A DNA stretch of 23,504 nt from a candidate division WOR-3 bacterium (GTDB taxonomy: Bacteria; Hydrothermota; Hydrothermia; Hydrothermales; Hydrothermaceae): NCBI GenBank assembly GCA_039803745.1, contig JBDRZD010000008.1:1-23504 (forward strand). Direction: 5' to 3'. Numbering within the stretch: position 1 is the first letter of the stretch; every line of letters begins with the position of its first letter. The translations under genes and the position numbers were made by a program. Shown in pieces: positions 5,749 through 9,730 of this stretch. The notes below the pieces were generated by a model, which was not told the DNA's origin, did not search any database, and was given only the letters and a program-made list of their open reading frames with translations.

Positions 5749-5832
5749 GCCGGGGTGGCGGAATTGGCAGACGCACATGGTTGAGGGCCATGCGGGTTTA
5801 AGCCCGTGCGGGTTCAAATCCCGCCCCCGGCA
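5749..5832 (+). tRNA. trnL: tRNA-Leu(GAG)
   Basis: Acceptor stem GCCGGGG/CCCCGGC, anticodon arm CATGG-TTGAGGG-CCATG, long variable arm, T arm GCGGG-TTCAAAT-CCCGC, discriminator A; CCA not encoded. Confidence 0.97.
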
Positions 5833-6341
5833 CAAGAAAAATAGGATTTCAATTTTTTCAACGCTCTGAAGATTTTTATTTTAACAGTATTTTCTTGAAT
5901 TCCCATTATTTCTGAAATTTCTTTTATTTTAAAGTTTTCAATATATTTTAAAATTATAATTTCTCTATCTTCTTCTTTTAAATTTAAAAGAGCACTTTCA
6001 ATTTTCCCCTTTAATCTCATTCTTTCATAAATATCATTTTTATTTTCGTAAATTTCTTCAATAAAAGGCATTTCCTTTTTCTTTTTTCTCAAAAAATCAA
6101 TACAGCAGTTCCTTGCTATTTTAAAAATGAAAGCCCTTGCATTCCTTTTAAAATCTATATTGTTTATATTCTTAAAAATTTTTAAAAATGTATCCTGGAG
6201 TAAATCTTCCGCATCTTCTTTATTATAAACAATTCTATAAATATAATTATAAAGAGGAATCTTATATTCTCTTACAAAGATTCTTACAGCATTTTCATCT
6301 TTTTTTCTAAGTTTTTCAATATATTCCTCATTTAATTCCAT
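5814..6341 (-). CDS. ECF-type RNA polymerase sigma-70 factor (SigW/RpoE-like)
   Basis: Region 2 DAEDLLQDTFLKIF...FIFKIARNCCIDFLRK; region 4 HTH EISEIMGIQENTVKIKIFRALKKL; the ATG abuts the upstream stop codon. Confidence 0.93.
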   Translation of the reverse strand: MELNEEYIEKLRKKDENAVRIFVREYKIPLYNYIYRIVYNKEDAEDLLQDTFLKIFKNINNIDFKRNARAFIFKIARNCCIDFLRKKKKEMPFIEEIYENKNDIYERMRLKGKIESALLNLKEEDREIIILKYIENFKIKEISEIMGIQENTVKIKIFRALKKLKSYFSCAGGGI

Positions 6342-7280
6342 TCACAATTTTCTTGTTCCAAGTCTTGATAGTATAATGGAACCAAGGCCAAATGTGAAAT
6401 AAAGATATAATATAAAAAGGATTATCAAAGTAATAACAAAACCAAAAACCCCGAGTATTGTATTCCCTGTTTTAAGAAGATTTCCTAAAATTAAAATTAT
6501 AAAAAGAATTATACACCCTGTAAAGGAAAGAAAATAGGTTTGTGAAGGCAAAAAATCAGCATTTTTCTTAATCAATTTGCCTATGAATAAAGATGAGGGA
6601 GCAAGGGATATTAAAAGTGCAAGCACAAATGCTATAATAAAAAGAGGGATAAGGAGTATTCCTATAATACTTATTATTAAGAAAATCAAAGCAGGAAAAA
6701 AAAGTATTTCTACTAAAAATCCTGTAAGAAAACACATACCCATTCTTTTTTCAATAAACATTTCCATATTTTCAATACCCTGAGGAAATATAAGTGAAAT
6801 TAAAAGAATTATTAAAGAAAGAGAAGTTCCCCAGATAAAAATAAGAATAGGCATTATATATTTTTTTCCTTCTTTAATTTTTATTTTTTCTTCCTTAATT
6901 TCAGTTTTTGCTGGAACCTTACCTTTATGGGGGATGAGTTTGAAAAAGATATTTAATGGTCCAAGATAAATCTGTGAAATTTCCCCTTCAATTTCCACAT
7001 CTTTTTCTCTATTTATTTTTCCCCCAACAACTGCCAAACTTCCTCTTATATAAGAACCGGAATATAAATTTGCATTTCCACCAATAACTGCCACATTACC
7101 ATCAATTCTGCCATATAACTCAAGATCCCCATTTATTACTGCAACATCTCCTTTTACTTCTCCTTCAATTATAAGTGTTTCTCCTATAACATTTATATCC
7201 TCTTCAATTTTTTCATCCTTTCTTACATAAAAGGCATTTAAAAGAAATACTCCTATAATCAGGATTAAAAATTTTTTCAT
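6342..7280 (-). CDS. Membrane protein with an N-terminal bactofilin-like (polymer-forming) beta-helix and a C-terminal multi-TM domain
   Basis: Signal peptide; repeats GEVKGDVAVINGD / GRIDGNVAVIGGN / YIRGSLAVVGGK; several hydrophobic segments; SD AAGGAGG. Confidence 0.8.
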   Translation of the reverse strand: MKKFLILIIGVFLLNAFYVRKDEKIEEDINVIGETLIIEGEVKGDVAVINGDLELYGRIDGNVAVIGGNANLYSGSYIRGSLAVVGGKINREKDVEIEGEISQIYLGPLNIFFKLIPHKGKVPAKTEIKEEKIKIKEGKKYIMPILIFIWGTSLSLIILLISLIFPQGIENMEMFIEKRMGMCFLTGFLVEILFFPALIFLIISIIGILLIPLFIIAFVLALLISLAPSSLFIGKLIKKNADFLPSQTYFLSFTGCIILFIILILGNLLKTGNTILGVFGFVITLIILFILYLYFTFGLGSIILSRLGTRKL

Positions 7281-7762
7281 AATTTCACCTCCTTTAAAGC
7301 AAATTTTTTAAATAAATAAATTAAAATGAATAAAAGAATTGTATTGGTTATAATGAAGGTAAAAATGATCGGAGTAATTACATAAAATATTTTAAATTCA
7401 AAGATAGAAGAAAAAATTTTAAACAAAGATATTATTTTGGATAAAAATATGATAAAAGAAGGTAAAAATTTTTTAAAAGAATATAATAAAAATAAAGCCA
7501 CTAAAAAGATAAAAAGGGATAATGAAAAAGCGGAAACTCTTAAATAAATTGGTTCTTTTAAAATTAAATATATTATTTTTTCTTCAAAGTTTAAAGAAGG
7601 TTCAAATTTTTCAATTTTATTTATTTCATTTTTTAATTCAACTATATAATTATAAAAATCCCTGCAAGAATGGCATTTTTCAATATGAATTAGTATTTCT
7701 TCAGGAAGTTTTTCCCCTTCAAGAAGCTCGATTATTTTTTGTTCTATTATTTCACAATTCAT
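7277..7762 (-). CDS. Zinc-binding anti-sigma factor (ZAS/zf-HC2, RsiW-like), membrane-bound
   Basis: MNC...HIEKCHSC (C-Xn-HxxxCxxC), EPSLNFEEKI linker, 2-3 hydrophobic helices. Confidence 0.85.
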   Translation of the reverse strand: MNCEIIEQKIIELLEGEKLPEEILIHIEKCHSCRDFYNYIVELKNEINKIEKFEPSLNFEEKIIYLILKEPIYLRVSAFSLSLFIFLVALFLLYSFKKFLPSFIIFLSKIISLFKIFSSIFEFKIFYVITPIIFTFIITNTILLFILIYLFKKFALKEVKL

Positions 7763-7771
7763 TTAATATTA

Positions 7772-7800
7772 AATACGAAGAAAAAGATAAAAAAGTTTCA
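7772..7800 (-). promoter_or_regulatory. ECF (SigW/SigM-like) promoter for the anti-sigma operon
   Basis: The minus strand reads TGAAAC-N17-CGTA, ending 11 nt before ATG 7762; it resembles the B. subtilis SigW consensus TGAAAC-N16-CGTA. Confidence 0.7.
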
Positions 7801-7802
7801 AA

Positions 7803-7833
7803 TTGAAATAAAATTTTGTTATACTTTAATATT
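7803..7833 (+). promoter_or_regulatory. Putative promoter of tRNA-Leu(CAA)
   Basis: TTGAAA, 18 bp, TAATAT; also an extended -10 TGtTATACT at 7817-7825. Confidence 0.45.
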
Positions 7834-7850
7834 TAAATACTAAAACTTCT

Positions 7851-7936
7851 GCCGGGATGGCGGAATCAGGCAGACGCGGCGGATTCAAAATCCGCTGGGA
7901 GAAAATCCCATGGGGGTTCAAGTCCCCCTCCCGGCA
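7851..7936 (+). tRNA. trnL: tRNA-Leu(CAA)
   Basis: Acceptor stem GCCGGGA/TCCCGGC, anticodon arm GCGGA-TTCAAAA-TCCGC, variable arm TGGGA/TCCCA, T arm GGGGG-TTCAAGT-CCCCC, discriminator A; CCA not encoded. Confidence 0.97.
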
Positions 7937-7945
7937 TAAAAATTT

Positions 7946-8155
7946 ATGAGAGATAAAGTTACAATAAAAATTCCAAGACCCCTTTATAATAAATTAAAAA
8001 AAATTATTGAAGGAACAGGATTTTCAAGTGTTAATGAATTCATTGTTTATGTTTTAAGAGACCTTGTTTCAATAAAAGAGGAGAGTAAAGAAGAATTGAC
8101 AAAAGAGGAGATTCAAAAAATAAGAGAAAGACTTAAGAATTTAGGCTATCTATAA
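7946..8155 (+). CDS. CopG/ribbon-helix-helix transcriptional regulator with a C-terminal RLxxLGY motif
   Basis: Ribbon VTIKIP, helix LYNKLKKII, turn GFSSVNEFIVYVLR; acidic tail ending IRERLKNLGYL. Confidence 0.85.
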   Translation: MRDKVTIKIPRPLYNKLKKIIEGTGFSSVNEFIVYVLRDLVSIKEESKEELTKEEIQKIRERLKNLGYL

Positions 8156-8162
8156 TTATAAA

Positions 8163-8217
8163 AATTTGTTTAATTTGTTTGACATTTTGTACTCCAATTA
8201 GAGTATAATTAGAGTAT
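8163..8217 (+). promoter_or_regulatory. Promoter/operator region of the TauE gene
   Basis: TTGACA 8179-8184 and TATAAT 8204-8209 (19-bp spacer); near-palindrome TACTCCAATTAGAGTA 8190-8205; tandem AATTAGAGTAT x2 at 8196-8217; tandem AATTTGTTT x2 at 8163-8180. Confidence 0.55.
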
Positions 8218-8218
8218 T

Positions 8219-9025
8219 ATGAAAAATTTAATTTTGGTTTTTTGTTCGTTCCTTTTTGAGTTTATTGATAGTTCAATAGGAATGGGTTATGGAACTGAAT
8301 TAACTCCTCTTTTAATTCTTTTGGGTTTTCCTCCTTCAAAAGTTGTTCCTTGCGTTTTATTCTCAGAATTTATAACAGGAATTTTAGCAGGCATATTTCA
8401 TCATAAATTGGGTAATGTAAAGTTTGATTTTAGAAGGGATGAAAAGGTTTTAAAAAGGCTTTCGGGACTTGGTTATGTTCCAAAATCTTTTGATGCAAAG
8501 GTTAGTTATTTTCTTATAATTTTTGGAGTAATAGGAGCAATCTTTGCTTCTTTAATTTCAATAAAACTTCCAAAAAAATTCGTAACTTTTTATATTGCTT
8601 TTATGGTAACAGGAATAGGAATTTATATTCTTATAAATTTGAATAAAAAAATTGTTTTTAATTGGAGAACATTTTTATTCATTGCGCTTTTAAGTGGATT
8701 CAATAAAGGCATTTCAGCAGGTGGATATGGTCCGCTTGTTGCCGGAGGTCAGATTATTTCAGGTCGCTCTGCAAAAAGTTCAATAGGGACAACCTCCCTT
8801 GCAGAAGGAATCATATGTTTTATATCTATTTTAATTTATGTTTTTTTAGGGAAAGGTATAGATTTTAAAATAGGTATTCCCCTTCTTATAGGAAGTGTTC
8901 TATCTGTTCCTTTTTCAGCACTATTTGTTAAAAAAACACCTGAAAAAAATTTGAAAACTTTGATTGGAATAATCATTTTAATACTCGGAATTTCAAATAT
9001 TTTGAAGGTTTTTAATCTCTTTTAA
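8219..9025 (+). CDS. Sulfite exporter TauE/SafE (TSUP) family membrane transporter
   Basis: Two internal repeats with Gly motifs (FIDSSIGMGYGTELTPLL; GFNKGISAGGYGPLV), ~8 TM segments. Confidence 0.9.
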   Translation: MKNLILVFCSFLFEFIDSSIGMGYGTELTPLLILLGFPPSKVVPCVLFSEFITGILAGIFHHKLGNVKFDFRRDEKVLKRLSGLGYVPKSFDAKVSYFLIIFGVIGAIFASLISIKLPKKFVTFYIAFMVTGIGIYILINLNKKIVFNWRTFLFIALLSGFNKGISAGGYGPLVAGGQIISGRSAKSSIGTTSLAEGIICFISILIYVFLGKGIDFKIGIPLLIGSVLSVPFSALFVKKTPEKNLKTLIGIIILILGISNILKVFNLF

Positions 9026-9730
9026 AATTGGTATATTTTCAATTTTTTCGTCATCAAGGAATTCCCATAATATTCCCTTTGGTTTTTGGAGTTTAATTTC
9101 TATTTTATATAAATTAAAAGGTGTTATTATATAATCAACAGGTATATCATGTGGTAAAAATGGAATATCTTCATCTATTATTTGTAAAGGATGAACACTT
9201 GTAATTATCTTTGTATTTTCATCAATAAATCCAAAATTTCTTCCTATCGCATACTCTAAATCAGAATATCCTCCTCCCTTCCCGATTCTTTTTCCATTTA
9301 AATTTACTGCAACAGAACCTGCAATTATTAAATCTATTCTTTTAATTTCCTTTGGATGAACTTTTTCCCCAAGTTTAAATGCCCCTTTTATTGTTGAAGC
9401 AAATGATACATCTTTTATTTTTTCAGGATCAATTTTTATAAAACATTTTAATTCCCTTAATCTTGGAAAAGCCATATAAACTATTTTCCCTTCTTTTAAT
9501 GCCTTTTCCCTTATATGTTTTTGCGGCGAATCAGGATTTGATTTTATAAATTTTGCCTTTTTCCATTCAGGAACTTCTTCTAAGAATCTTATACATTTTT
9601 CAGCATCTTTAAAATTTGGTATTCTACCCCATGCACCCGGAAATACAGCAACATTTTTCTCTTCAAGAAGTTTCCATATCCTTTCCCTTATATTCTTCTT
9701 TTTTTCTCTTATTTTCTCTATTTCCTTCAT
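8993..9730 (-). CDS. 5-formyltetrahydrofolate cyclo-ligase family protein (MTHFSD-like subgroup)
   Basis: [19 protein letters not shown]...[23 protein letters not shown] motifs. Confidence 0.88.

Follow-up and report, generated by a model that had tools for sequence, protein, structure and literature searches.

Here we describe a two-gene locus in a contig of a candidate division WOR-3 bacterium (JBDRZD010000008.1, positions 1 to 23,504; this whole stretch of 23,504 nucleotides is called the window), in which the gene of a 69-residue ribbon-helix-helix (RHH) type protein is followed, after a spacer of 63 nt, by the gene of a TauE/SafE (TSUP) family permease. With slightly better than even confidence, we propose that the RHH protein represses the gene of a TSUP importer of the sulfate type through a tandem operator, and that both proteins carry a helix characteristic of the same pathway, which we call the LGY helix. 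The features on which the argument turns, with their positions in the window, are the following:

7946..8155, plus strand: RHH (CopG/Arc/MetJ-type) protein, 69 aa, likely repressor of the TauE gene (RHH_1 20.1 bits, AlphaFold2 model, Foldseek rows)
8096..8152, plus strand: LGY helix of the RHH protein, residues 51-69, LTKEEIQKIRERLKNLGYL (third helix, N-cap T-x-E-E, C-terminal L-G-Y-L)
8179..8209, plus strand: promoter-like elements of TauE, TTGACA at 8179-8184 and TATAAT at 8204-8209 (read from the sequence; spacer 19 nt)
8187..8219, plus strand: operator-like array of three tandem 11-bp units (weight matrix, co-occurrence with RHH, enrichment)
8219..9025, plus strand: TauE/SafE (TSUP) family permease, 268 aa (PF01925, 96.7 bits)
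8426..8485, plus strand: TauE loop insertion, about residues 70-89, with KRLSGLGYVPKS, a putative internal copy of the LGY motif (split Pfam match, hhalign)
7850..7937, plus strand: tRNA-Leu(CAA) (ARAGORN; Rfam tRNA, 55.2 bits)

The RHH protein ends in IQKIRERLKNLGYL (8111-8152), which reads ...RLKNLGYL, and TauE carries DEKVLKRLSGLGYV at 8438-8479 (residues 74-87), which reads ...RLSGLGYV. From the K to the last residue, the two peptides share six of 12 residues (K, R, L, L, G and Y), and two further positions are conservative; when we rechecked the open reading frames (ORFs) and their translations, the positions and residue counts that an earlier note on this DNA had given for the pair proved correct. 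The proteome scan for RLxxLGY that the same note had proposed was run in six frames on the 1.67-Mb assembly and returned the RHH protein, TauE, the C-terminus of an adenosine 5'-phosphosulfate (APS) kinase on contig C9 and an ORF on contig C87, whose RLSLLGYY is probably a chance match. Among the ORFs of at least 100 aa of this genome (529,235 residues), RL..LGY was expected 0.5 times and seen three times, a number reached by three of 200 residue shuffles; the RHH protein is a fourth case, outside that count. A looser C-terminal pattern added a 519-aa PF01663 enzyme belonging to the alkaline phosphatase (AP) superfamily on contig C10, ending in ...KKHLKGLGYI, and the tails of this genome are those of the RHH protein, the APS kinase and this enzyme.

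Both copies of the peptide are strongly conserved. In the RHH tail, L63, L66, G67 and Y68 do not vary in any of the 25 homologues aligned, R/K-L-x-x-[LI]-G-Y is kept in all 80 genomic RHH loci, and G-Y is present in 119 of the 120 RHH homologues among the matches listed, the remaining one being cut short. The earlier note had taken conservation of the loop motif in close TauE homologues as a test of its idea, and the motif is present in 24 of 24 aligned homologues, which reach down to 44% identity and include one named euryarchaeal sequence: G85, Y86, P88 and S90 never vary, and conservation is at least 90% at R80, L81 and L84. The tyrosine is never replaced by phenylalanine (119/120 RHH and about 117/120 TauE homologues among the matches listed). 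We then compared, with hhalign, a profile built on 17 tails, which belong to six protein families and do not include TauE, with a profile of the TauE loop, and the two aligned over 13 columns with a probability of 93.8%; of 30 sliding windows along TauE, the four that hold the motif scored 60-94% and the other 26 at most 1.1%. We regard it as confirmed that the shared peptide is real and beyond chance, with both copies near-invariant in their own families.

Next, we studied the region between the two genes. In different phyla, TauE, Pst and Cys loci alike have a conserved element made of 11-bp units just 5' of the ATG of the transporter gene, with AATTGTAGTACAATTGGAGTA as its consensus over two units. 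Three such units follow one another in the window, at 8187-8197 (TTGTACTCCAA), 8198-8208 (TTAGAGTATAA) and 8209-8219 (TTAGAGTATTA); the array overlaps the TATAAT hexamer (8204-8209), and its last base is the A of the TauE ATG. When the genome was scored with a weight matrix built from other loci and not from the window, the top three matches of the whole 1.67 Mb all fell at 8185-8216 (23.6, 20.9 and 17.0 bits), and the next best reached 15.6 bits inside an ORF; any further sites in the genome scored at most 15.6 bits and lay inside ORFs, so the matrix gave no regulon beyond TauE. An exact-repeat search found the tandem at this site only. With up to five mismatches, a degenerate two-unit pattern had 80 of its 252 matches in the 160 nt downstream of RHH genes, which make up 1.2% of the search space, and the 21-mer of the window had 38 matches within 400 nt of RHH genes, in 30 of the 79 other loci, and 14 elsewhere, an enrichment of about 15-fold (that region being 14.9% of the search space). 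An element of 20-27 bits precedes TauE in the six of six relatives that have the RHH gene, and none above 10 bits precedes it in the two of two that do not (93% and 95% complete). In genome G003 the element is kept before TauE though the RHH gene is 2.4 kb away, with two ORFs between; in G031 and G035, in which a DASS gene follows the RHH gene, the matrix found no operator above 10 bits. Because the array is the best and unique site of the genome, because it co-occurs with the RHH gene and because its pattern is enriched near RHH genes, we read it as the operator of the RHH protein and infer that the protein binds it.

A different conserved stretch, which starts as GCTTCCTCCCTC...AAATT...TTTA..., was observed in Aminicenantes-type loci (L007, L008, L012, L015, L025, L026 and L039) within the first ~100 nt past the RHH stop codon, with the operator and TauE following it. 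An RNA element or the last part of an ORF on the minus strand could account for it.

To characterize the LGY helix, we aligned the tails, and a plan about 20 residues long emerged. It opens with the cap S/T-x-E-E and an acidic turn, goes on with [IV]-x-x-[RK/Q]-L-x-x-L-G-Y and a hydrophobic residue, and often has an acidic residue last; 0-3 further residues stand after the hydrophobic position. The RHH tail, LTKEEIQKIRERLKNLGYL, matches every element of this plan and aligns with the tails of APS kinase, AP-superfamily, sulfatase, DUF2061 and CysA-like proteins. The candidate copy in TauE has the core e-x-x-x-K-R-L-x-G-L-G-Y, is internal, continues with x-P-x-S and is basic instead of acidic. 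Within 4 kb of the RHH genes of the 80 loci, 18 non-RHH ORFs have an LGY-like end, clearly so in 17 cases, namely eight DUF2061 membrane proteins, four CysA-type ATP-binding cassette (ABC) ATPases (above the TIGR00968 cut-off), two APS kinases and three sulfatases.

A census with the tail profile against 1.84 billion protein representatives returned 145 proteins at E<=1e-3. By Pfam class these comprised four APS_kinase proteins, five with Phosphodiest, Sulfatase or SGSH_C, two DUF2061 and seven RHH-type proteins. The top rows held about 8-9 repeat proteins (PG_binding_1, winged helix-turn-helix (wHTH) and HEAT) with many weak stretches, which we set aside by eye and regard as a generic helix end, and the remainder were mostly short proteins or fragments without a Pfam match, which by eye look like RHH proteins of 60-90 aa or like the ends of APS kinases or AP-family proteins, the class calls for short fragments being partly made by eye. 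A homologue search with the tail alignment gave 454 matches; among the 120 matches listed, almost all are RHH-like proteins of 75-100 aa, together with 15 of the DUF2061 family.

These results bear on three statements of the earlier note. It had stated that such a tail recurs at the C-termini of sulfatase and AP-superfamily proteins, and this was borne out by the tails found at RHH loci, by the PF01663 enzyme and by the census. Its suggestion of a portable module carried by proteins of unrelated fold agrees with the presence of the tail on RHH, APS kinase, AP/sulfatase, DUF2061, CysA-like and CysD-like proteins, and the link that it drew to sulfur metabolism likewise stands, since the bearers include APS kinase, CysA-like, DUF2061 and CysD-like proteins and since loop-bearing TauE genes occur in sulfate-activation operons. 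Word searches of open-access text found no paper describing the LGY motif (the sole match to its spellings was unrelated), and when PDB sequences were searched with profiles of the RHH protein and of the tail, no solved structure holding the tail turned up.

Some bearers have unusual arrangements. The tail-bearing APS kinases (L099-L113 of relatives and G000:C9:34318-34911) have two LGY-like helix ends each: the last helix of the enzyme itself (e.g. ...LNFLENKGYI) and, after a short linker, the appended acidic tail (...RLEELGYI), for which a duplication of the native end is a possible origin. A 107-aa RHH protein from the census (P0362) has two tandem C-terminal LGY helices. Finally, a CysD-like (PAPS_reduct) gene adjoining TauE (L178:63-2105) holds an intein (Intein_splicing, LAGLIDADG_3 and Hint_2) and has kept its LGY-type tail.

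The AlphaFold2 model of the RHH protein has an extended stretch at residues 1-10 and helices at 11-21, 29-46 and 53-65, the family profile aligns with the N-terminal domain of NikR (E 0.018), and the best Foldseek rows for the model are Reg576, ParD, Arc, NikR, CopG and omega, all at E>0.1. Our search found 947 homologues, several of them labelled CopG family regulator at source, and a scan of one genome per species confirmed 546 relatives. Identity is 60-85% across WOR-3, Aminicenantes, Zixibacteria, KSB1, Acetothermia, Thermotogota, Chrysiogenota and others (more than 10 phyla); NCBIfam holds no model for the family, and word searches of open-access text found no paper on it as a transporter regulator.

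To see which genes accompany the family, we surveyed 80 RHH loci for transporters within about 3-4 kb and found an oxyanion transporter gene in 59 of them, a set whose counts are not independent, since many loci come from related metagenome-assembled genomes. PstC (above the equivalog cut-off) was the neighbour in 18 loci, loop-less TauE in another 18 (three of them also with DASS), CysT in 11, DASS alone in seven and loop-bearing TauE in five, while 21 loci had none of these transporter classes. Some of these 21 are cut at contig ends, and in some the RHH gene is followed by an APS kinase or AP-family gene. The RHH subclades track the type of the neighbouring transporter, with 24 label changes on a quick tree, on which kin share labels, against 50.7 when the labels were shuffled, and this argues for a family of dedicated paralogues. 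In two genomes (L088 and L089, of G035 and G031) the genes of RHH homologues with 58% identity reach into the start of the DASS (Na_sulph_symp) gene.

The permease is a clear TauE protein, with 96.7 bits on PF01925 against a cut-off of 32.6 and with invariant GMGYG and GGYGP motifs, and its gene at 8219-9025 is the only TauE-family locus found in the genome. Its AlphaFold2 model (mean pLDDT 85.7) has 11 helices and places the motif between those of residues 39-63 and 91-113. The nearest solved fold is BacA (5oon; E 8.6e-4, TM 0.57), and the matches that Foldseek gave for the model in the PDB include no TSUP member. The Pfam match splits exactly around the loop, into 8237-8425 and 8486-8995, leaving residues 70-89 uncovered, and the 18 loop-less TauE genes beside RHH genes, from Aminicenantes-type genomes and with about 240-313 bits on the TauE profile, align with an 18-residue gap. 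The loop is present in five RHH-adjacent TauE loci plus the window. On these alignments, the TauE segment with the LGY motif is an insertion in the loop after the second long helix. Metagenome loci contributed a third, 46-residue form of the loop, which also has L-x-x-L-G-Y-[IV]-E. A DUF2061 gene with the tail lies beside seven of the 18 loop-less TauE genes, which looks like the same function supplied in trans.

As for the substrate, the genome (93.5% complete) encodes ATP sulfurylase (Sat) and APS kinase, on contigs other than that of the RHH-TauE pair, and a search of it found one DASS and one TauE gene and no SulP and no CysT/W. In many metagenome loci loop-bearing TauE stands behind two tail-bearing RHH-like genes and is followed on its 3' side by a gene for a 270-aa PAPS_reduct (CysD-like) protein that ends in ...MQKLRALGYM; in locus L164 the gene that follows loop-bearing TauE encodes an APS kinase with the tail. 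The presence of Sat and APS kinase, the search result for SulP and CysT/W and these sulfate-activation operons make TauE most likely an importer of sulfate or a close sulfur oxyanion, a role that we infer from context. In published work, the TSUP family is linked to sulfite export and putative sulfate uptake (PMC8268124, PMC5840216), and its proteins are listed as putative sulfate transporters for which function prediction was then not feasible (PMC5840216). On its two sides, the Sat gene (G000:C63:654-3954, L122) has a second PF01663 gene, which carries no tail, and a GT2 glycosyltransferase gene.

We therefore favour a mechanism whose DNA binding, repression, substrate, cytoplasmic loop side and LGY-helix partner are all predicted. 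The RHH protein, probably as two or three neighbouring dimers, would sit on the three tandem 11-bp units at 8187-8219; as these cover the -10 hexamer and the TauE start codon, binding would stop transcription of the permease gene. TauE would import sulfate or a close sulfur oxyanion and so feed the ATP sulfurylase and the APS kinase encoded elsewhere in the genome. The LGY helix would mark proteins of sulfate uptake and activation in many phyla, as the third helix in the RHH protein and as a loop insertion in TauE, and each bearer most likely uses it separately, either to engage a common partner or to associate like with like. On the RHH protein it could provide contacts between dimers on the operator, with no private lock between regulator and transporter. 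A bolder version, which we consider unlikely, makes the LGY helix a pathway-wide association tag. Like-with-like or hub-mediated contacts would bring APS kinase and AP-fold enzymes to the importer, where the TauE loop, the DUF2061 tail or the CysA tail would receive them, and would compete with the tail-tail contacts by which RHH dimers stay together on the operator; the occupancy of the assembly would then set transcription of the uptake gene, as a partner-switch circuit made from a single 20-residue peptide.

The earlier note had suggested that the transporter sequesters the repressor through the shared motif. Under such an arrangement, which we judge quite improbable, the TauE loop would bind or mimic the RHH tail, and the transporter would hold or release the repressor according to its transport state, like the trigger transporters. 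Both motifs are conserved, the genes are adjacent, an RHH protein of 69 aa without an obvious ligand pocket makes a protein signal plausible, and the strongly basic loop (9 K/R in residues 59-95) would suit the cytoplasmic side. The co-occurrence that the note predicted was also observed: in metagenome loci with at least 300 nt upstream of TauE, a tail-bearing RHH gene lay within 600 nt of 28 of 44 loop-bearing TauE genes (16 had none) versus four of 24 loop-less ones (20 had none), figures inflated by near-identical loci. However, the RHH tail is unchanged beside the 18 loop-less TauE genes and beside 18 Pst operons, whose ABC proteins hold L-x-x-[LIVM]-G-Y in none of the 18 loci (in Cys loci the pattern occurs in four of 11, with several CysA genes cut at the locus end), and a tail so invariant gives no specificity to the paralogues. 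Conversely, G001 and G004 (93-95% complete) keep the TauE loop without the RHH gene or the operator. The APS kinase tail, found in 15 of 41 relatives, occurs in five genomes (G008, G010, G016, G022 and G027) in which neither RHH nor TauE was found with the queries used, and each of the eight relatives, out of 41, in which TauE bears the loop has an APS kinase with the tail; the loop thus follows the pathway more closely than it follows the RHH protein. A complex prediction for two RHH copies plus TauE, run with alignments, scored 0.00 and weighs neither for nor against binding, and the topology of the loop is not settled. On comparative evidence, motif-mediated sequestration of the repressor by the transporter, and with it a private pairing of RHH tail and TauE loop, is not supported, and the evidence appears to point to the DNA operator, and not to docking on the transporter, as the place where the RHH protein acts.

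Two further explanations concern the helix itself. L-x-x-L-G-Y could be a favourable end of an amphipathic helix, with a glycine cap and an aromatic staple, that arose or was kept separately in each protein, leaving an ordinary regulator-transporter unit with no function shared through the peptide. In line with this, the tails show weak matches to helix 1 of PG_binding_1/2 and to the last part of a wHTH family, the top matches of the census are repeat proteins of the PG_binding and wHTH families, the tail profile finds a weak match in the C-terminal helix native to a solved APS kinase (7yq0), and a 300-aa ORF on contig C21 likewise ends in I-G-Y-I-S. Yet the full 20-residue pattern is found on at least six unrelated families that share pathway and neighbourhood, the tyrosine is never phenylalanine in the RHH and TauE homologues counted above, the motif in TauE is an indel, and loop-less TauE is often paired with a tail-bearing DUF2061 gene, all of which makes this explanation improbable. 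We find it very unlikely that the helix is instead a chemical or allosteric handle centred on its invariant Tyr and its Arg, either a pseudo-substrate or acceptor of the AP enzymes (for example in Tyr O-sulfation) or a sensor of APS, PAPS or PAP together with the host domain, which would give a pathway-wide feedback on transporter, enzymes and repressor. The strict conservation of the Tyr and the near-strict conservation of the Arg speak for such a handle, as does the fact that all sulfur-linked bearers handle sulfate, APS or PAPS, but a single helix makes a poor ligand site, the Pst-linked RHH paralogues retain the tail, and no Sulfotransfer_3 (PF13469) sulfotransferase was found in the genome.

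Several observations weigh against the repressor-operator reading that we prefer and against the place that it gives to the LGY helix. The RHH ORF scores 20.1 bits (E 6.2e-4) on Pfam RHH_1, just below the cut-off of 20.5, and Foldseek returned nothing at E<=0.001 for its model; the evidence for membership of the RHH class is persuasive when taken together, with no single test above threshold. A consensus promoter scan that allowed spacers of 16-18 nt missed the TauE promoter, whose 19-nt spacer makes it a weak call; the equivalent hexamers of related loci are 17-18 nt apart. The Pst-, Cys- and TauE-linked paralogues have a near-identical operator consensus, which raises a problem of cross-talk, and the Pst-linked ones keep the tail, so the RHH tail is not tied to sulfur alone. 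To this we add the 21 of 80 RHH loci without a classed transporter and the relatedness of the genomes behind the survey. L-x-x-L-G-Y also ends helices in unrelated domains, the tails match weakly the start of PG_binding_1/2 and a wHTH family, and part of the LGY likeness may be a generic helix cap. As regards topology, the loop is basic (the nine K/R mentioned above), and positive-inside counts restricted to strict loops put nearly all K/R on its side of the membrane; with loops widened by 5 residues, the two sides of the loop-less homologues are equal (7.6 vs 7.4), and such counts do not settle the membrane side of the loop.

The surroundings of the pair in the window have some features of their own. 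The RHH start codon lies only 9 nt past the 3' end of the tRNA-Leu(CAA) gene, with no promoter-like site in between, and the sole promoter-like sites near the RHH gene are at 7797-7832, 5' of the tRNA; since they lie only upstream of it, the regulator gene may be co-transcribed with tRNA-Leu. The order of tRNA-Leu and then RHH is repeated in the same-genus genome G003, and in G001, in which the RHH gene is missing, TauE stands directly behind two tRNA-Leu genes. An Rfam scan of the spacer between RHH and TauE gave no match. At its other end, the TauE gene shares its last 33 nt with a convergent gene, that of 5-formyltetrahydrofolate cyclo-ligase (8993-9730, minus strand), at the 3' end of the latter. 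On the 5' side of the tRNA lie three co-oriented minus-strand ORFs (5814-7762) of 175, 312 and 161 aa, the last with a Cys/His-rich N-terminus and membrane helices; Pfam gave no match for the 161-aa or the 312-aa protein, and the three could form a sigma/anti-sigma-like unit.

By its anatomy, the RHH locus resembles that of an Arc/Mnt/CopG-type repressor on a tandem operator. Arc and Mnt each bind with two dimers, whose half-sites are spaced by about 11 bp, the operator of MetJ consists of 8-bp boxes in tandem, and the C-terminal helix of Mnt forms tetramers. The likeness to the Arc, Mnt, CopG and MetJ repressors lies in the small predicted RHH fold, in short tandem operator units about one helical turn apart and in their overlap with the promoter. 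In contrast to these repressors, the family described here extends over more than 10 phyla at 60-85% identity, lacks an NCBIfam model and falls below the Pfam cut-off, and its third helix is a module found also on enzymes and transporters of the pathway. Direct contact by which a transporter reports its state to a regulator is known from MalK-MalT, PtsG-Mlc and PstSCAB-PhoU-PhoR, whereas our comparative data argue against the motif as such a contact.

The closest arrangement that we encountered is the archaeal sulfate-assimilation cluster of Pyrococcus yayanosii and Thermococcus onnurineus, in which, according to the section of the source that deals with it, a putative copG regulator gene stands at the head of the ATP sulfurylase and APS kinase genes and a DUF81/TauE gene is adjacent (PMC8268124). 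Unlike that cluster, the bacterial RHH-TauE pair stands alone, on a contig different from those of sat and cysC, and the same section mentions neither a shared motif nor a TauE loop nor an operator (PMC8268124). Our permease is also set apart from the TauE/SafE family (PF01925), of which it is a clear member, by its LGY insertion of ~20 residues outside the Pfam model. What is new here is the internal LGY copy in a membrane transporter, the tails of DUF2061 and CysA-like proteins, the RHH paralogues beside phosphate ABC genes and a defined operator.

The regulation of sulfate uptake and activation is essentially unknown beyond the proteobacterial CysB model, and this gap includes the uncultured phyla considered here (WOR-3, Aminicenantes, Zixibacteria, KSB1, Acetothermia and Thermotogota). 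The locus offers a concrete candidate pair of regulator and operator for a TSUP permease, a family whose substrates are poorly known, and it belongs to a single conserved RHH family spread over sulfate, phosphate, DASS and TSUP transporter genes. If the LGY helix is merely a helix cap, the locus would be an ordinary repressor-transporter pair; if it is a true docking tag, it would represent a new organising principle for a metabolic pathway and would provide a simple handle for pull-downs.

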